Shown here: positions 2,831 to 40,919 of the stretch, one piece after another
Layout of the letters: each line of letters opens with the position of its first letter
How positions within the stretch are numbered: the first letter of the stretch is position 1
Virus record (IMG/VR): IMGVR_UViG_3300029566_000029
Source: a virus
Direction: 5' to 3' (one strand)
DNA length: 42,726 bases
Translations under genes and position numbers: made by a program
Notes under the pieces: generated by a model
The model's database searches: none
What the model was told of the DNA's origin: nothing
Seen by the model: only the letters and a program-made list of their open reading frames with translations

Positions 2831-4315
2831 GTGGCCTTTAAAAAAATTAGCGATTCCGATTTGCAGAATAAGGGAAACATTGGCATGCCGGATACGCCCG
2901 GTTTAAGCACAGCTGACATGCAGAAAAAAATGGATGAAATCCCGCGTGAAGTCATTATCCCTGTTTTAAATGGCCTGATTGACGGGCTAAACGGGATGGA
3001 TTTGGATAAAAGAACCCATAACGGCGGCGGCTGCCTTTATATCCGTGTAAACAGTGACCGCGTTATTGAAACCAGCAATGACGGCACTTCCTGGCAGGCG
3101 ACAGGTAGCAGCGGGCACTTAATCATTGACGAGACCGGCAATGAAATGCCGCAGCGAAACCGCATGCAGTTTTTGGGGGCCACCGTTACCGATACGGGGC
3201 TTTACACGGTTATTCAGGCGCGAAAAGGCGACCCGGGGCAGCAAGGCCCCCAGGGGCCGGTAGGACCGCAAGGCCCGCAGGGCGTGCAGGGGCCTATTGG
3301 CCCGGCAGGCCCACAGGGCGCACAAGGCTTACGCGGTGCAACGGGCGACCCCGGCCCAGCAGGCCCGGCAGGCGCAACAGGTCCTACCGGACCGAAAGGG
3401 GAAAAAGGCGAAAAGGGAAGCGACGGTTCCAGCTTTGTTGTGAAAGGCTTGTATGCCACGCTTTCCGCACTGAAAGCTGCACACCCAACCGGCGTGGCTG
3501 GAGACGCTTACGCGGTTGGAACGGCTGACAACAACGTTGTGTATTTGTGGGACGTTGACCAGAGAGCATGGGTATCTGTTGGAACGCTGCAAGGCCCGCA
3601 AGGTCCTACTGGCCCGCAGGGACCGCAGGGGCCTACCGGCTCTGTTGGGCCGCAGGGACCTACCGGCCCGCAGGGTGAAACCGGCCCGCAGGGTAAACAG
3701 GGCGTACAGGGTGAGCCTGGCGAAAAAGGTGAGCAGGGAATCCAGGGTTTGCGCGGTGAGCAAGGCCCTACCGGACCGCAGGGGCCGCAGGGCGAAAAGG
3801 GAGACCCCGGACTTGTACAGAGCGTAAACGGCAAGAGCGGCGAAGCAATTGTGCTGACCGCAGAAGATGTTGGTGCGTTGGATGAGAGCACAGCAAAAGA
3901 ACTTATCACCAGCCAAACGTCCGGGAAAATGGCGGTAAGCACCTATGACCCGCAGGGGCGGCAGACCGATATTTTCAAGGCAATCGACAAGGTCTCCAAC
4001 ATCTACTACGCCAGGCTTACGCTGAACGGGTGGACGGCCTGCAGCAGCGCAGACCAGGCCAAAGACCTGCTGTGCCAGCAGACGGCCACGCTGACCTGCG
4101 CGAACAGCCATGCGCCGGTGGTGACGGCTGCCAGCGAGTTTTTGTCCGGCATCGGCTACGACAAGACCGGGGTGCCCGCTACCGATGATGTTCTGAATGA
4201 AGTGCAGGACATCATCAACGACGGCGTGACGGTCACGGCGTACAATTCGGTGCTGGTTAAGGTGAAAAAAAAGCCCACCGCCGAAATCCGGGCGCGGTGG
4301 GTCATTCAAAGCTGA
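2831..4315 (+). CDS. Collagen-like repeat tail fibre protein
   Basis: GTG start after AAGGGGTGAG. There are two uninterrupted G-X-Y blocks: 22 triplets at 3227-3424 and 24 triplets at 3593-3808. A globular C-terminal domain follows. Confidence 0.8.
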
Positions 4316-31228: not shown

Positions 31229-32371
31229 ATGGCAAGAGCAAAAGCGCGGGCCGATGGGCTGATTGAACGAACAAAAACCTACGACGGCAAGCGGGTACAC
31301 TTTTACGGCAAGACCGCGAAAGAGGTCGCCGCAAAAATTGAAGAGTACGAACGCCAGCGGGAAGAAATGAAAGAGAACGGCCCACTGTTTGAGGATGTGG
31401 CCGGTGAATGGTGGGAGACCCATTCAAAAAATATCAAGACAGGCGCTGAAAGAGCCTACAAGGGCAGCTACAAGGCCGCGCTGGAAGAGTTTAGCGGGTA
31501 CAGAATGAAAGAGATAACCCCTGCTGTGGTGTCGCTGTGGGGCGAGAAATTCAAGGCCGCAGGCTATGCAGGGAAGACGGCAAGCAACGCCCGGAGCGTG
31601 TTGTCTTGCGTGTTCAAGTTTTGGTGCGTCCGGGATGGCGAAACATACAACCCGGTAACAGTTACAGATTTGCCGCGAGGAATGAAAAAGGAGCGCCGGG
31701 AGCCTCCAACGGTGGAACAGCTGGAAACGGTCAAGGCACACCCGGAAGGGTTCGGGCTGTGTGCCTGGCTGTTCATGTACACCGGCTGCAGGTTGGGCGA
31801 GGTGCTGGCTCTGCAGTGGGGGGATGTGGATTTTGAAAACAACAAGATCGTCGTCAACAAGGAAGTCGCATGGGTAAATGCGAAGCCCGTTGTACAAACA
31901 CCGAAAACCGCAAACGGTGTGCGAGTAGTGCCGCTGCTGACACCGCTGCGGGCCGTGCTGGAGCCGTTGAAGGGCGGCAAGAATGATTTTATATTAAGCG
32001 GGAAAAAACCGCTTAAAAGCTACGAATACCATAATAATTGGCTGCGCTATTGTGTTGCTGTCGGCATGGCTGAAATAGATGCAAAAGCAGAGGCAGCACG
32101 AGAACGGAAGCGGGCCGCAGCTGCCGGAGGGTCAGAACGGAAAAAGCAGTGCAAGACGCACTGCTACAAGGCCAGCGTAACGGCACACCAGTTCCGGCAC
32201 GAGTATGCCAGCATGTTATATGCTGCAGGCATCGGAGAAATGGAAGCTCAAAAGCTGATGGGGCATGCCGATATATCTACGACACGGAAAGTTTACACGC
32301 ATATCCGAGAACGACAGCTAAACGGAGCGGCGGAAGCTCTCGAAAAATTTATAAACGATAATACGAAATAA
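31229..32371 (+). CDS. int: Tyrosine recombinase / phage integrase
   Basis: The catalytic region is GCRLGEVLAL...HQFRHEYASMLYAAG...LMGHADISTTRKVYTHI (R...H-x-x-R...Y). The gene lies adjacent to attP. Confidence 0.95.
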   Translation: MARAKARADGLIERTKTYDGKRVHFYGKTAKEVAAKIEEYERQREEMKENGPLFEDVAGEWWETHSKNIKTGAERAYKGSYKAALEEFSGYRMKEITPAVVSLWGEKFKAAGYAGKTASNARSVLSCVFKFWCVRDGETYNPVTVTDLPRGMKKERREPPTVEQLETVKAHPEGFGLCAWLFMYTGCRLGEVLALQWGDVDFENNKIVVNKEVAWVNAKPVVQTPKTANGVRVVPLLTPLRAVLEPLKGGKNDFILSGKKPLKSYEYHNNWLRYCVAVGMAEIDAKAEAARERKRAAAAGGSERKKQCKTHCYKASVTAHQFRHEYASMLYAAGIGEMEAQKLMGHADISTTRKVYTHIRERQLNGAAEALEKFINDNTK

Positions 32372-34953: not shown

Positions 34954-35508
34954 ATGGCAGAAAAGAAGGCGGCGCAGGCCGTCCAGCAGATGAGCAAGGC
35001 GCAGCAGGGTGTTGAACGAGCGAGACGGCAGGCAGAGCGCGGGGAACTGGTGGACAGTCTCGGCCGAGTGGTTAAACCGTCGCAGATTGCGGCGCTGTCT
35101 CCAAAATCCATAGGAGACCAGCCAGCAGAACGCAAGCGGGCAATTCAACAGGCAGGAGCAGCAGCAAGCAACGAGCTACAAGCGAAGAGACGGACTATTA
35201 AGGACATCTACAACGACTTACTGCAGCAGCCAGACGACATTACAGGGATAGAGGATCAGGAGCTAGCAGAGAGGGCACAACAGCGAGCACAACAGCAGGG
35301 GAAAGCAATAACCGTATACGACAGTATTGCTATTGCGATGGCGGCAAAAGCGAAGGCCGGAGACGTCAAAGCGGCGGTGTTTGTGCGGGATTCGGCAGGG
35401 GATAAACCGGCTGACCAGATGGAGATTACAGCCGAAGCGGTGACAGATGCGGATAGAGAATTGATGCAGAATATACAGAAGCGGCTACAAAAGAACGATA
35501 ATGCGTAA
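34954..35508 (+). CDS. Terminase small subunit candidate
   Basis: RBS AAAGGAGGG. The product is 184 aa and charged. The AKAGDVKAAVFVRDSAGDKP motif is recalled from Firmicutes TerS proteins. It is the first gene of the packaging block. Confidence 0.5.
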   Translation: MAEKKAAQAVQQMSKAQQGVERARRQAERGELVDSLGRVVKPSQIAALSPKSIGDQPAERKRAIQQAGAAASNELQAKRRTIKDIYNDLLQQPDDITGIEDQELAERAQQRAQQQGKAITVYDSIAIAMAAKAKAGDVKAAVFVRDSAGDKPADQMEITAEAVTDADRELMQNIQKRLQKNDNA

Positions 35509-35935
35509 ATTTGCTGTTCGCTAAATAAGTATTTAGCGAAATACAGCCGAGAAAAGCGGGCACATGCAGCATAAAGAGGAAGCCGAAAGCCTGCCGGGGG
35601 TGCATTGCATCAAGGCGGGGCGGGGCTTCTTTTTTTATGGGGCTGTCCAGCGGCAGGCAGCAGGGGACCGGGGGTACCCCCTATAAAGGGGGAGGCGGGG
35701 TTCATAGACAGCGCGGCCGGGTACGAATATGTCAGTTCCCCCACCGAATACAAAAATAAAATTTACCCACCCCCCCATGCAGGGACATGCCGAAAAAACT
35801 GACAGGTTCCCCAGAACAAAAATGATATAAAGTATATCCCGGCGCGGAAGTAAGTTAACCTCCTACTTACTATTTGGATTAGGGCCGTCCGCTTCAAGAC
35901 CCAGCGGCCACTATATGAAAAATGTGAGGGTAATT

Positions 35936-36202
35936 ATGAAAGAGTTACGCGACACTATTCAGGGTATGACAAGCGGTGATTACAACCAGCGTTTCATTGC
36001 GGAGTACGAGCAGACAAAAATTCGTTACGAGAAACTAAAAGCACTAAATACAAAAATTGAAGCACATAAACGTAACGTTTATACTTTTGAGCCGAAACAC
36101 GACTGCCCATACGACGTTTTAAGAGAACAGCAGACTGCAATGGGTCAATATCTGCACATTCTGGAATTAAGGGCTGTTCTCGAGAACATTGAATTGAATT
36201 GA
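35936..36202 (+). CDS. Small helical protein (88 aa), crAss001_48-related-like family candidate
   Basis: ATG 35936 lies 6 nt after GTGAGGG. The pattern is EYEQTKIRYEKL...LREQQTAMGQYLHILELRAVLENI. The insert is AT-rich and has its own terminator. Confidence 0.55.
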   Translation: MKELRDTIQGMTSGDYNQRFIAEYEQTKIRYEKLKALNTKIEAHKRNVYTFEPKHDCPYDVLREQQTAMGQYLHILELRAVLENIELN

Positions 36203-36207
36203 TGCAA

Positions 36208-36240
36208 AGCGTTCTGCTACGGCAGGGCGCTTTTTTATTT
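36208..36240 (+). terminator. Rho-independent terminator with UACG tetraloop
   Basis: A 10-bp stem, AGCGTTCTGC / GCAGGGCGCT (two G-U), has loop TACG and is followed by TTTTTT. Confidence 0.75.
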
Positions 36241-37060
36241 GCTGCATAGCTGACCATTTTGGTGACGTTACCAAGATGGTATGAGCGCTGCGTTCCGAAG
36301 CAACGGCGCGGCAAAGGTGCAAGACCTATGTGCAGTACCAATGCCGATGATACGGGTAAAGGTAGCAGGGCCGGACGCTGCAATTGTGTTCCCCGTTAGG
36401 CAACCGCCACGAGCCTACTGACAGTGCGTAACATGTGGCGGGTTCTGCAATACAGGGTGGCTCTCTGCCGTGGAAGTCGGCCAACTTTAGCTGAAACATT
36501 GCTATGGATTGCCAAGCCAAACAGGTTCATGCCGATATGCCCCGCTAAAGAAATTTGCAGGGCAGAGCGCATGAGCCTTATATGCCAACATAGCTTAACT
36601 GGTAAAGCCGGGCCTTATGACAGCATAGCTGCGGGTTTAGTTGTAGGTTCAAATCCTGCTGTTGGCGAAAGCTGGGTCGCTCCCACCGGTGAAAGCCCGG
36701 CGCAGGCAAAACGCGATAGATCAACCTAAACGCTGTAAGCAAAGCGGCAAGCCGATCAGGAGCGCGGCGCGATGGCAAGACGCAACGGGACTTCGAGAGC
36801 CTGAAAAAGTCTGCCCGGCATCTGCTTGTGCGGACTCCGTTACTGACGCAGTTACGCATCGCCGAAACCCATTACATCAAAGCAGAACCGCGAATCCGCA
36901 CGCGGGGGATAAATGCAGCGGATGAAAAAAACGTGTGGACAGCAGGCACGTTAAATTCTGACTGTACAAAAGCGTTGCGGATTTGCTCACCGCAACGGGT
37001 GAGACCGGCACAGCATAAACCGGTAGGGCGGGTATGGGGAATTTTGAGGTAGAGAAATGG
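36241..37060 (+). ncRNA. Candidate large structured ncRNA (boundaries approximate)
   Basis: No RBS-preceded ORF is present on either strand in an otherwise tightly packed genome, and the composition is GC-rich. Helices paired by hand are 36253-36280, 36285-36309, 36402-36444 and 36973-36997. Many GNRA-type loops are present, plus an embedded tRNA-like cloverleaf. Confidence 0.5.
36584..36667 (+). ncRNA. tRNA-like element with non-canonical anticodon arm
   Basis: The 7-bp acceptor stem is GCCAACA / TGTTGGC. The D-arm is GCTT-AACTGGTA-AAGC. The T-arm is GTAGG-TTCAAAT-CCTGC. The anticodon position holds a 29-nt arm (GGGCC...GGTTT with an inner CAGC-ata-GCTG hairpin) in place of a 5-bp stem and 7-nt loop. 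CCA is not encoded. Confidence 0.5.
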
Positions 37061-37224
37061 ATTGCAGGTTAGATTTTGAGATTTACGGAAAATCATTCTT
37101 TCTGTTGCCGTCGCTTTCGTTTTTGCATGACAACATGGTGTATGCGAGACCGAACTTTGCAATCAAGTTTGATTGGTTGGTTTTTCACGCAAGACTTTTG
37201 CTGTTTTGCTGAAAGCGGGGTGAT

Positions 37225-38718
37225 GTGTTGACGCTGGAAGAGATGCGGGAGCTTGAGCGCGAGGCGTGCAGGAAAGACCCGGTGTATTTTTGCGAAACAT
37301 ATTGCCACATTGAGGACAAGGACGCAGATGAGCTGATACAGCCGTTTACGCTGTGGGATGGGCAAAAGAAAGCACTGGTCGTGTTTGCCGAGAACCGGCT
37401 TGTTTGCGTGCTGAAAGCGCGTCAGTTGGGCTTTACATGGCTGGCGCTGGCAGAGGTGGCGCGGCTTGTGGCGCTGAATACAGGCCGTACCGCCATAGGT
37501 TTGAGCCGGTCAGAGGACGAGGCCAAAGAGCTTGTGCGCCGCTTGGCTGTGATACTGCGGTACATGCCGGGGCTTATCCGCGAAGTGGACACGCCGGGCG
37601 GCAGCGTTGCAGGCTGGACAGGGCCGGTATTCTACAAAAGCACAATGCAGGTGGTTGTGATGTGGCCGGACGGCCCGGAGAGCGTGTTTAAGGCGTTCCC
37701 ATCCAGCCCTGCGGCTGGCCGTTCGTTTACTGCCGACTTGATTGTGATAGACGAATGGGCGTTCCAGCAGTATGCCGAAGAGATTTGGCAGGCTGCATAC
37801 CCGGTTATCAACCGACCGTTCGGCGGGCGGGTCATCGGCTTGTCTACTATCAAGCTGGGAACGCTGTTTGAGGAAATCTACACGAACCCCGGCAACGGCT
37901 TTACCAAGCTGTTTTTGCCCTGGTCAACTGACCCGCGCCGTACCGAAAAATGGTACGCACAGACGGTCGCTGCGCTGGGCGAGGATAAAACGATGCAGGA
38001 GTACCCTGCAACAGAGGAAGAAGCGCTCTCCGCCCCCGGAGGGCGCTTTTTTAGTGAGCTTGATAAAGATGCCCACTTGGTTGATGCACCGCCCACAGGG
38101 CCGCTAAGACGCTATGTGGCGATAGATTATGGCCTTGATATGTTGGCGGCAATCTGGATTGCCGTTGACCCGAACAACCATGCAACGGTGTACCGGGTAG
38201 ACGGCGGGCCGAACAAGACCATTGGCGAAGCGGCGGATTTGATTTTGCGAGATTCCGAAGGCGAAGAAATTGATATGTACCTTGCGCCGCCTGATTTGTG
38301 GAACCGCAGCCAGGAGAGCGGCAAGAGCCGTGCGCAGCTGTTCAGCGAAGCGCATCTGCCGTTGGTGCAAAGTTCCCGCGATTTTCCTGCCGGGTGTGCG
38401 GCCATGAAACAGTGGCTGCGCAAGGACGAGAAAACAGGGAAAGGGTATCTGACGTTCTATAAGCCGGGCAAGTTGTGGACGTGCCTGACGAAGATACAGA
38501 AAGACGACAAAAATGCCGACGTGTATGCGAAAAATCCGCATGGATTGACGCATTTCCCGGATGCTTTACGCTATTTTTGCGTTTGGTGGACGAGCCCGGC
38601 GAAAAAGCCGGTGAATATCAAAAAGCGGCCGTGGACGGCAGATATGTACGAGGACTACCGAAATGCCAATGCGGAAGAGCGAAAGATGCTGATGGAAAGG
38701 TGGGGACACCCTGCATGA
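37225..38718 (+). CDS. terL: Terminase large subunit
   Basis: Walker A-like VLKARQLGFTW and Walker B LIVIDEWAF are present, with nuclease-domain Asp motifs (YVAIDYGLD). The start is GTG 37225, or ATG 37243. Confidence 0.9.
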   Translation: MLTLEEMRELEREACRKDPVYFCETYCHIEDKDADELIQPFTLWDGQKKALVVFAENRLVCVLKARQLGFTWLALAEVARLVALNTGRTAIGLSRSEDEAKELVRRLAVILRYMPGLIREVDTPGGSVAGWTGPVFYKSTMQVVVMWPDGPESVFKAFPSSPAAGRSFTADLIVIDEWAFQQYAEEIWQAAYPVINRPFGGRVIGLSTIKLGTLFEEIYTNPGNGFTKLFLPWSTDPRRTEKWYAQTVAALGEDKTMQEYPATEEEALSAPGGRFFSELDKDAHLVDAPPTGPLRRYVAIDYGLDMLAAIWIAVDPNNHATVYRVDGGPNKTIGEAADLILRDSEGEEIDMYLAPPDLWNRSQESGKSRAQLFSEAHLPLVQSSRDFPAGCAAMKQWLRKDEKTGKGYLTFYKPGKLWTCLTKIQKDDKNADVYAKNPHGLTHFPDALRYFCVWWTSPAKKPVNIKKRPWTADMYEDYRNANAEERKMLMERWGHPA

Positions 38719-39917: not shown

Positions 39918-40919
39918 ATGGCAGTTATTTTTAGTAAATCCAGCGGCGCAGCCAATGATTATTGGAACGAATGGGCCGACATGATCCAGATGAAGATGAA
40001 GGACACCGACAACGAGAAGAACAACGACGACGAGCTTGTCAATGCCCTGTTCAACGTGAAGAAGTCCAAGCGTTTTGGTGAGAAGATCGCGGGCCTGTCT
40101 ACCTTTGGCAACTTTGAGGTTGTGGACGAGGGCGCAGAAGCTCCGGCCGATACCCTGAAAGAGACTGAGCCCAAGCTGATTACCCACAGCGAGTTCAAGA
40201 AACTGTTTGAAGTCACCAAGACCATGAAAGAGGACTTGCAGTTTGACATTGCTGCTACCAAGGCAGCCGCCAATGTACGCTCCTACAAGCGCAGCCGTGC
40301 AGAGTTTGGCAGCAACGCGCTGACCAGTGCCGCCAAGACCTTTACCTACGGCAGCAAGACCGGACTGGACAGCACCACCGCCGACGGCCTGGCCCTGTTT
40401 GATAAGGCGCATACCGGCCTGACCGGCGTTGCGACCCAGTCCAACGTGTTTACCAATGCCTTTGGCAATGACGACGCCATGCTGAACCGCCTTGCCAACA
40501 TTGGCATGAACTTTAAAAACGCCACCGGCCATGTGATGGGCTACACCTTCGATACCCTGATCGTGCCCGGCAACGCCTACCGCCTGATTACGTTGGGCAA
40601 AAAGATCATCAACAGTGACCAGCAGGTTGGCAGCAACTACAACGATGCAAACGTGAACAAGGGCATGTGGAAGCTTGTAGTTGACCACCATTGGCAGTGC
40701 GCAGATGGCACCGAGCCGTACATCATCATGTCCAGCCAGGCCAACAAAGACCTGATGGGCAACATGTTCTACGACCGTACCCCGCTGGAAATTGAGCAGG
40801 ATGTGGATGTGCGCACCCAGAACCTGATTTCCAGCTGCCGCTGCCGTTTCAGTGTCGGTTTTGGCGATTGGCGTCACATCCTGCTCGGAGGCGCCGCTGC
40901 CGGTACGGAGTTGACCTGA
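39918..40919 (+). CDS. Major capsid protein
   Basis: The product is 333 aa with RBS AAAGGAG. It follows the scaffold gene and a strong terminator lies downstream. I recognise no sequence motif, so the call rests on size and position. Confidence 0.7.
   Translation: MAVIFSKSSGAANDYWNEWADMIQMKMKDTDNEKNNDDELVNALFNVKKSKRFGEKIAGLSTFGNFEVVDEGAEAPADTLKETEPKLITHSEFKKLFEVTKTMKEDLQFDIAATKAAANVRSYKRSRAEFGSNALTSAAKTFTYGSKTGLDSTTADGLALFDKAHTGLTGVATQSNVFTNAFGNDDAMLNRLANIGMNFKNATGHVMGYTFDTLIVPGNAYRLITLGKKIINSDQQVGSNYNDANVNKGMWKLVVDHHWQCADGTEPYIIMSSQANKDLMGNMFYDRTPLEIEQDVDVRTQNLISSCRCRFSVGFGDWRHILLGGAAAGTELT

Follow-up and report, generated by a model that had tools for sequence, protein, structure and literature searches.

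The tRNA region of bacteriophage T4 is a phage tRNA cluster that also encodes two additional stable RNAs, termed C and D. Mimics of tRNA such as the MALAT1 mascRNA, the tRNA-like domain of the bacterial YrlA RNA and the tRNA-like domain of tmRNA define RNA ends or recruit tRNA-binding factors. Other RNA elements act in cis at the head of a transcript, including cryIIIA STAB-SD, a 5' mRNA stabiliser of Firmicutes, and HK022 put, a cis antitermination RNA. The D12-methyl RNA motif (Rfam family RF02950) was reportedly described by Weinberg and colleagues in 2017 and presumably owes its name to a location upstream of a gene for a D12-class N6-adenine DNA methyltransferase; a literature search on the motif found no papers. 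Finally, the large RNAs GOLLD and ROOL occur in prophages in the vicinity of tRNA genes, and their function is unknown (PMC5737381). Here, we analyse a region of 984 nt (positions 36241-37224) in IMG/VR virus record IMGVR_UViG_3300029566_000029, a stretch of 42,726 nt henceforth called the window. A preliminary description had taken this region for a GC-rich, helix-dense giant RNA, devoid of open reading frames (ORFs) and located between the terminase genes terS and terL.

In our favoured reading, to which we assign a probability of roughly 0.6, the region is instead a composite: a tRNA array that has decayed, a structured leader that is constant over ~380 nt and has the D12-methyl motif at its 3' end, a small gene and terL. 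It represents a portable cassette, placed at various points of the late region in different phages, with a leader for downstream packaging genes. From 5' to 3' the cassette would begin with a terminator-like hairpin, continue with a variable number of units that each combine a hairpin, a U-rich tract and either a tRNA or a look-alike, and close with the constant leader (36669-37036), which would lead directly into the ribosome-binding site (RBS) of the next gene, here a 51-aa ORF followed by terL. The window phage would have lost most of the tRNAs, and the spacers at 36249-36583 and one non-decoding look-alike would be left. The features are as follows.

35915-36202, directly upstream of the region: gene of the crAss001_48 family, 95 aa (Pfam E = 3.8e-15; phrog_774)
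36206-36243, plus strand: M0, a terminator-like hairpin with a 12-bp stem (36206-36233), followed by TTTATTTGCT, from a terminator scan
36249-36340, plus strand: M1, a dispensable spacer block with two hairpins (36253-36280 and 36285-36309)
36341-36447, plus strand: M2, a dispensable spacer block of variable presence, with a terminal hairpin (36405-36442) that has a conserved 24-nt loop
36448-36519, plus strand: M2b, a rare insert of 72 nt, found in only three close relatives (L001, L002, L004) and in 6 other loci, all 100% identical
36520-36583, plus strand: M3, a hairpin followed by UUAUAU, of variable presence and immediately 5' of the tRNA-like element
36584-36667, plus strand: T1, a tRNA-like element (Rfam tRNA model 47 bits, gathering score 29; called 'His (atg)', 86 nt, by ARAGORN)
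36669-36817, plus strand: M5, a conserved non-coding leader block of ~150 nt that follows a tRNA or tRNA-like 3' end
36817-36863, plus strand: M6a, a long hairpin (helix 36828-36841/36845-36859, flanking helix 36817-36819/36861-36863)
36878-36913, plus strand: hairpin/pseudoknot box with the stems CCGCG (36878-82)/CGCGG (36891-95) and ATCCGC (36884-89)/GCGGAT (36908-13)
36922-36966, plus strand: optional extra hairpin block (CGTGTGGACAGCAGGCACGTTAAATTCTGACTGTAC) with a predicted fold, present in a subset of leaders only
36973-37036, plus strand: D12-methyl RNA, RF02950 (90.9 bits against a gathering score of 57; model positions 1-64 of 64)
37045-37212, plus strand: block of the small hydrophobic 51-aa ORF (37057-37212), with a GAGG RBS
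37225-38718, plus strand: terL, terminase large subunit (phrog_2, E = 1.4e-25; weak match to Terminase_6N), the first large gene that the leader would serve

With phage tRNA clusters such as that of T4 the locus shares co-oriented tRNAs, short structured spacers, interleaved non-tRNA stable RNAs and a variable content, as well as the presumed maturation by host RNase P and 3' processing. Unlike these clusters, the array has decayed to spacers and one look-alike, lies within the packaging operon and ends in a conserved leader, and several look-alikes have no anticodon arm at all. These look-alikes resemble mascRNA, YrlA and tmRNA in the geometry of acceptor and T-arm (with or without a D-arm) used by RNase P, RNase Z and the CCA-adding enzyme, and in the absence of a decoding loop. 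However, they are located at the 5' side of an mRNA leader and not at the 3' side of a long non-coding RNA, and searches with Rfam (E ≤ 10) and ARAGORN found no sequence or covariance-model relation to YrlA, tmRNA or mascRNA. The leader is reminiscent of STAB-SD by its GGGUGA, which resembles a Shine-Dalgarno (SD) sequence, is flanked by hairpins and has no start codon, and of put as a two-hairpin cis element ahead of a long operon; these likenesses are functional analogies only and imply no homology. GOLLD and ROOL have in common with the locus the prophage and tRNA-neighbour setting and the unknown function, yet here no covariance model matches, a large core is missing, the blocks form a mosaic, the phages are gut phages of Oscillospiraceae and the constant part is a series of hairpins of ~380 nt.

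The comparison covers about 150 gut-phage loci. A search with terL yielded 80 IMG/VR loci at 49-100% identity and an additional 31 prophage loci; the hosts are Gemmiger (84%), Allofournierella, Ruthenibacterium and other Oscillospiraceae/Clostridia. A set of 33 close relatives served for the block comparison. Scanning IMG/VR with a pattern for the core of the D12-methyl motif returned at least 120 loci, with 97 distinct contexts among the matches listed. The whole window was compared with Rfam at gathering thresholds, and positions 35600-37500 were compared with 4227 families at E ≤ 10. No match to the region was found by blastn among 50,697 phage records, and tblastn with terL found no cultured relative, the top match being 58% in a human faecal bacteriophage record and the rest about 26%.

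At the gathering thresholds only two Rfam matches were obtained in the window, the D12-methyl motif and the tRNA-like element T1. A helix that the preliminary description had paired by hand at 36973-36997 turns out to be hairpin 1 of the D12-methyl motif, and the competing pairing CTCACC/GGTGAG that it had offered is not conserved in relatives. Hairpin 1 is followed by a GGGUGAG linker, hairpin 2 and a AGGGCGGG tail. Both hairpins occur in compensatory versions, namely GCGG/CCGC, GCAG/CUGC and GCAAAG/CUUUGC for hairpin 1, and ACCGG/CCGGU and CCGGG/CCCGG for hairpin 2. The constant core comprises GGGUGAG, hairpin 2, AGGGCGGG and a further GGGG run; versions with an additional hairpin ahead of this fourth G-tract retain it as well. 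The SD-like GGGUGA is complementary to UCACC at the 16S rRNA 3' end. In the L036-type phages (terL 64% identical) and in L122, the 3' end of tRNA-Gln or tRNA-Met takes the place of hairpin 1, and the core abuts the tRNA directly; in L212 the M1 hairpin stands in for hairpin 1. A pairing of the AGGGCGGG tail with an upstream CCCGCC appears in the minimum free energy (MFE) folds of some leader types only, and a G-quadruplex built from the four G-tracts and a kissing interaction between UGCU and AGCA loops are candidate features only.

The genes that follow the core are diverse. In the contexts listed, the first gene can be a window-type terL, a GP3_package-type terS with a Terminase_3-type terL, an SPP1-type portal gene, a methylase of the MethyltransfD12 or the ParB-N6_N4 type, or a TAGT-family glycosyltransferase; radical-SAM and PLD-like proteins were detected as weak matches below threshold. 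The next long ORF usually starts 6-60 nt downstream of the motif; phages of the window and portal types have a small ORF or an SD between the two. Upstream of the cassette the genes vary as well and include a DUF1492 regulator (L081), a terS-like gene (window, L036) and a terL-like gene of 559 aa (L099, L150). In the window, the motif precedes the 51-aa ORF and terL, and no D12-class methylase follows; such a methylase is the next gene in relatives, e.g., in L090. Since the first gene may encode terS, terL, the portal or a DNA-modification enzyme, the name of the motif refers to only one of its cargoes.

The locus agrees with RF02950 in the match to the full 64-nt model, the origin from gut metagenomic phages and the adjacent methylase in L090, but the conserved unit appears larger than the Rfam model, as it includes the upstream boxes, M5/M6 and the fourth G-tract downstream, and the 3' end of a tRNA may substitute for its hairpin 1. 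The suggestion that the RNA was undescribed does not apply to the D12-methyl part, which has already been catalogued. Two side observations concern the contexts of the motif. The D12-class methyltransferase of L090, the ORF of which starts 58 nt past the core, contains a long internal run of LQRLQSLES-type repeats. Furthermore, in L081 and about 40 other loci, which make up the commonest alternative context, the tail continues, 8-45 nt past the core, as the hairpin GCGC-UUUUCCUCCG-GCGC with an anti-SD-like loop. Between this hairpin and the first gene lie AAAGGGG and a run of GGGGG; this tail hairpin is a possible SD-sequestering switch.

Upstream of the D12-methyl motif, the leader continues as a series of plus-strand RNA elements with covariation, and in this respect the structured RNA proposed in the preliminary description is genuine. 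M5 is present in all 33 close relatives and in 58 other loci. Its 3' hairpin GGCAaga...ucUGCC (~36771-36815) covaries (GC/AU; AU/GU/GC; CG/UA/AU), and its small 5' hairpins occur as CCGG/CCGG versus CAGG/CCUG and as UCCG/CGGA. RNAalifold poorly supported a global structure of M5, and covariation is limited to the 3' hairpin and the small 5' hairpins. The block is regarded as non-coding because it contains internal indels of 1-2 nt among relatives. Indels of this size also break the short overlapping ORFs listed earlier for the region, which do exist; 36203-37056 has no conserved ORF, and coding potential was rejected for 36241-37056.

The long hairpin M6a was compared in 20 distinct sequences, in which 98.1% of the cells are paired and 6 pairs are changed on both sides. 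Its covariation score of 0.303 compares with 0.135 in shuffles (0 of 500 reach it) and with at most 0.17 for slid partners. Three near-invariant G.U pairs on the plus strand would be A.C on the other strand. In the adjoining box at 36878-36913, a conserved GGGGAUAAAU lies between the two 3' strands, and the two stems may interleave as an H-type pseudoknot. Boxes of the type CCGCN...N'GCGG plus (U)AUAAAU recur one to three times upstream of D12 hairpin 1 in relatives, and the strict pattern is found in 58 copies on the plus strand and in none on the minus strand. The outer stems of the boxes differ wholly from version to version (ATCCGC/GCGGAT, TTTCCT/AGGAAA, CCAGCG/CGCTGG and CCCTGT/ACAGGG). 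The TATAAAT boxes were also considered as sigma-70 promoters and were rejected on the basis of their spacing and a promoter scan, which found no sigma-70-like site and no properly spaced -35/-10 pair inside the region.

The leader is preceded by tRNAs or elements that resemble tRNAs. A tRNA-shaped module had been noticed at 36584-36667, and both Rfam and ARAGORN call this element, T1. Its acceptor stem, D-arm and T-arm are intact, and no CCA is encoded. In place of an anticodon arm it has a long irregular arm, predicted to fold as GGGCC/GGUUU with an internal loop and then CAGC-AUA-GCUG, and the alignment to the covariance model has 17 extra nt in the anticodon loop. Because T1 has no anticodon loop and the 'atg' in the ARAGORN label is not a standard His anticodon, it is filed as tRNA-like; judged from its sequence, which offers no 5-bp anticodon stem with a 7-nt loop as in a decoding tRNA, the element is a look-alike and not a decoding tRNA gene. 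T1 is found in 7 close relatives, and others carry different tRNAs or look-alikes at the equivalent place. M5 is always preceded, 3-5 nt past the discriminator or CCA, by a canonical tRNA (Thr, Trp) or by one of five look-alikes, T1 and the following types from relatives.

T2, in relatives: look-alike of 58 nt, anticodon arm wholly missing (above the Rfam tRNA threshold)
T3, in relatives: look-alike of 69 nt with encoded CCA, a 4-bp stem and an odd loop (above the Rfam tRNA threshold)
T4 and T5, in relatives: look-alikes with a short arm and a 4-nt loop (below the Rfam tRNA threshold)

Each tRNA or look-alike unit is preceded by a hairpin and UUUUAU(A/U)U. When T2 alone was searched in IMG/VR, the start of M5 followed in 64 of 75 distinct contexts, in 57 of them at exactly 14 nt, and the D12 core was located 180-391 nt downstream in 57/75. 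A tRNA or a T-arm is present in 104 of 110 distinct regions upstream of the leader, and the association with tRNA genes that had been anticipated is borne out by the relatives, which carry tRNA-Ser (GCU), -Thr (UGU/CGU), -Asp, -Trp, -Met and -Gln genes in the same space. All 98 tRNAs called by ARAGORN in the 110 regions are on the terL strand.

The region is a mosaic. In the close relatives, M0, M5 and the D12-methyl motif are always present, and the 95-aa gene, M1, M2, M2b, M3, the tRNA look-alike, 37050-37203 and also most of M6 are variable. About 40% of the region consists of blocks that are independently present, absent or replaced by tRNAs among phages with a 92-100% identical terL, which does not fit one large conserved RNA. 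The hairpins paired by hand at 36253-36280 (11 bp, including one G.T) and 36285-36309 are both present in M1, and only one-sided changes occur in them among relatives. M1 itself is found in 23 of 44 terL-derived loci and in 51 pattern-derived loci and is absent elsewhere; its neighbours in relatives are genes for tRNA-Ser and tRNA-Thr/Trp. The helix previously drawn at 36402-36444 corresponds to the terminal hairpin of M2, which shows compensatory changes (GC to CG and AU to GC, in either direction) and, together with TTTTATAT, is located directly 5' of a tRNA-like element in relatives. Similarly, the M3 hairpin contains a compensatory CG/UA pair and G.U pairs. In L027, the shortest close version, M0, tRNA-Thr, M5, M6 and the D12-methyl motif fit into ~390 nt, and L036-type phages retain only tRNA-Thr, tRNA-Gln and the D12 core. 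Short direct repeats flank the blocks, e.g., 36316-36340, which is duplicated around the tRNA-Thr insert of L002, and suggest a gain and loss of blocks through recombination. By their sequence context, the ~335 nt at 36249-36583 are to be seen as spacers left from a decayed tRNA array. As a separate observation, three hairpins have the string GCAACGG(G) in common on their 3' side (36300-36309 in M1, 36779-36789 in M5 and 36990-36999 in D12 hairpin 1); they may be paralogous modules or contain a common protein-binding box.

The region is not free of ORFs up to 37224, as had been assumed. The last 170 nt are protein-coding, because the 51-aa ORF is intact from ATG to stop in 15 of 15 distinct versions from relatives (51-52 aa). 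No family match was found for its product in Pfam, PHROG or NCBIfam. The block is optional and missing in about half of the close relatives, where the D12-methyl motif is then ~25 nt away from the terL start and abuts the terL SD. In most versions the TGA of the small ORF overlaps the SD and start of terL. The window and L033 alone have a tandem duplication of 8 nt, TTTTGCTG TTTTGCTG, at 37196-37211, with which the C-terminus reads ..LLLFC rather than ..LLLKAG and the stop overlap with the terL SD and start is lost.

Under the favoured reading, the cassette would be transcribed from upstream by read-through or antitermination as part of the late transcript. A transcription within the packaging/late operon, as proposed earlier, is indeed most likely, given the uniform orientation of the tRNAs and the lack of an internal sigma-70-like site. 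RNase P and RNase Z, or 3' trimming, would then excise the tRNA and tRNA-like units, and the look-alike before M5 would act as a processing punctuation mark; T1 has the structural prerequisites, with an acceptor stem of 7 bp, a T-arm and no CCA after the discriminator. The freed leader, capped by hairpins and carrying the SD-like GGGUGAG and a G-rich tail, would stabilise and/or gate the downstream packaging genes in cis.

Several points weigh against this reading. The co-transcription, the cleavage by RNase P/Z and the role as stabiliser or regulator are all steps that we infer from the sequence, and a read-through of the M0 terminator has to be assumed. The relatives are mostly >85% identical per block, and the covariation thus amounts to few independent events. 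Folding energies of single modules are no better than those of shuffles (z from +0.5 to -1.9), and the MFE of the whole 984 nt (-352 kcal/mol; z = -2.9 on the plus strand) is nearly matched by the reverse strand (z = -2.5; 20 shuffles per strand). 'Helix-dense' is therefore not established by energy, and the case for structure must be comparative. In about 6 of 110 leaders, neither a tRNA nor a T-arm can be recognised within 900 nt, and in L135 and L138 only the last hairpin box and the D12-methyl motif are present, directly after a gene; a tRNA neighbour is therefore not obligatory for D12 function. Finally, some variants are incomplete: L030 (~3759-3800) and L047 (~3238-3280) are devoid of hairpin 2, collapsed between ACCGG repeats, and in L009 (~3741-3775) the 5' half of hairpin 1 is missing. 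If these phages are viable, the variants are possible ready-made mutants.

The analysis places the D12-methyl motif at the 3' end of a portable tRNA-array cassette before the first packaging or DNA-modification gene in many gut phages of Oscillospiraceae. The new elements are the wider context and probable enlargement of an orphan motif that was already known, and tRNA look-alikes that are fixed before a leader and in which the anticodon arm is defective or missing. The function of D12-methyl RNA becomes directly testable in a Gemmiger prophage. Moreover, 'ORF-free, helix-rich' regions near phage tRNAs call for caution, as they may be decayed tRNA arrays. A tentative and rather unlikely extension goes further and combines the tRNA or anticodon-less mimic, M5, the hairpin/AUAAAU boxes and the D12 core into one 'array-exit' device, which would act in cis and be new in kind. 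The mimic would recruit tRNA-processing enzymes or another tRNA-binding factor to create or mark an mRNA 5' end, the D12 core with its GGGUGAG and four G-tracts would control ribosome loading, mRNA survival or antitermination, and the whole cassette would move between unrelated packaging modules of Oscillospiraceae phages. Such a device would provide a function for the orphan motif and define a family of anticodon-less tRNA mimics in phages.

The main rival retains the anatomy and assigns a different task to the D12 core and the upstream boxes, which would be a cis-acting transcription-control RNA rather than a stabiliser, e.g., a processive antitermination element like HK022 put, EAR or LoaP leaders, or a switch of the riboswitch kind that works on a terminator or an SD. 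RNA polymerase or ribosomes would thereby be let through into the long late operon. Such an element is suited by the two hairpins, the loops of which are conserved, and by the G-rich single-stranded linkers, which are conserved too; it also heads long blocks of late genes downstream of terminator-like hairpins; the anti-SD-like loop just ahead of the AAAGGGG run in the commonest alternative context and the DUF1492 regulator gene just upstream of the cassette in L081 point in the same direction. However, no known antitermination or riboswitch family matches at E ≤ 10, the motif lies downstream and not upstream of the terminator-like hairpins of the array, and the terminator scan shows no terminator after it in the window. 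We consider this explanation doubtful, if worth keeping in mind.

It is improbable that the look-alikes and hairpin blocks are trans-acting products, such as small RNAs or decoys for host nucleases or toxins that target tRNA, and that their position is incidental. Phage tRNAs have been linked to the evasion of anticodon nucleases, the look-alikes are interleaved with ordinary phage tRNAs, and all five types keep acceptor, D and T arms and lose the anticodon loop. Yet mimics without an anticodon cannot decoy anticodon nucleases, and the fixed distance between T2 and the leader points to a role in cis.

Quite improbable, too, is an element that acts as DNA, i.e., a pac or cos site, or an array of late promoters or regulator-binding sites, the inverted repeats of which mimic hairpins. 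The region adjoins terminase genes, contains repeated boxes with TATAAAT-like sequences and lies in the few kb upstream of terL in which numerous metagenomic contigs end. These ends are, however, scattered over 124-3681 nt upstream of terL and do not mark a single site, and the placement of the element relative to terS, terL and portal differs by phage. Stems that covary without sequence conservation, G.U pairs that are invariant on one strand and strand-specific boxes argue for RNA, and the promoter scan gave no properly spaced -35/-10 pair.

The giant ornate RNA of the preliminary description, a single molecule of ~1 kb folding as a unit, be it GOLLD/ROOL-like or new, is not supported and very improbable: an ORF-poor stretch with a tRNA-like neighbour in a temperate phage is the typical GOLLD/ROOL context (PMC5737381), several helices covary and the whole-region MFE is somewhat below that of shuffles, but no large-RNA covariance model, be it GOLLD, ROOL or HEARO, matches at E ≤ 10, the minus strand folds nearly as well, the 3' 170 nt are a conserved ORF, and a conserved 1-kb architecture with long-range pairing is excluded because blocks are independently missing in sister phages.

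The window resembles a complete temperate phage genome, with an integrase gene at 31229-32371 and a major head protein gene at 39918-40919. The G+C content of the region is 0.519 compared to 0.524 for the window, and the region is thus neither AT-rich nor, as had been stated, GC-rich. M0 is a strong predicted intrinsic terminator, a G+C-rich hairpin with a T-run, and is the sole plus-strand terminator-like site in or adjoining the region. It forms the 5' boundary of the RNA cassette, is kept in all 33 close relatives with or without the 95-aa gene, and its T-tract abuts tRNA-Thr directly in L015 and L027. The upstream gene is not terS, as it belongs to the crAss001_48 family. It appears as a moron-like insertion in only 7 of the 33 close relatives, and where it is absent, 35915 is joined directly to the terminator at 36202. 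The 184-aa protein encoded at 34954-35508, presumably the terS that had been meant, was rejected as such, as it has no support from Pfam, PHROG or NCBIfam; a homolog occupies the equivalent place in more distant relatives.

Between these two genes, ~400 nt (35509-35914) contain no long ORF, have C/G homopolymer runs and are ~70% conserved in relatives. No self-cleaving ribozyme motif reaches its gathering score in the window itself. In related phages, motifs of the self-cleaving ribozyme classes twister-sister, pistol and RAGATH-5 were detected at Rfam thresholds (L003:609-687(-), L036:1383-1462(-), L129:441-521(+); L034:1424-1490(-), L036:633-699(-); L016:175-227(-)), and in terL-oriented loci they are located ~2-3.8 kb upstream of terL.

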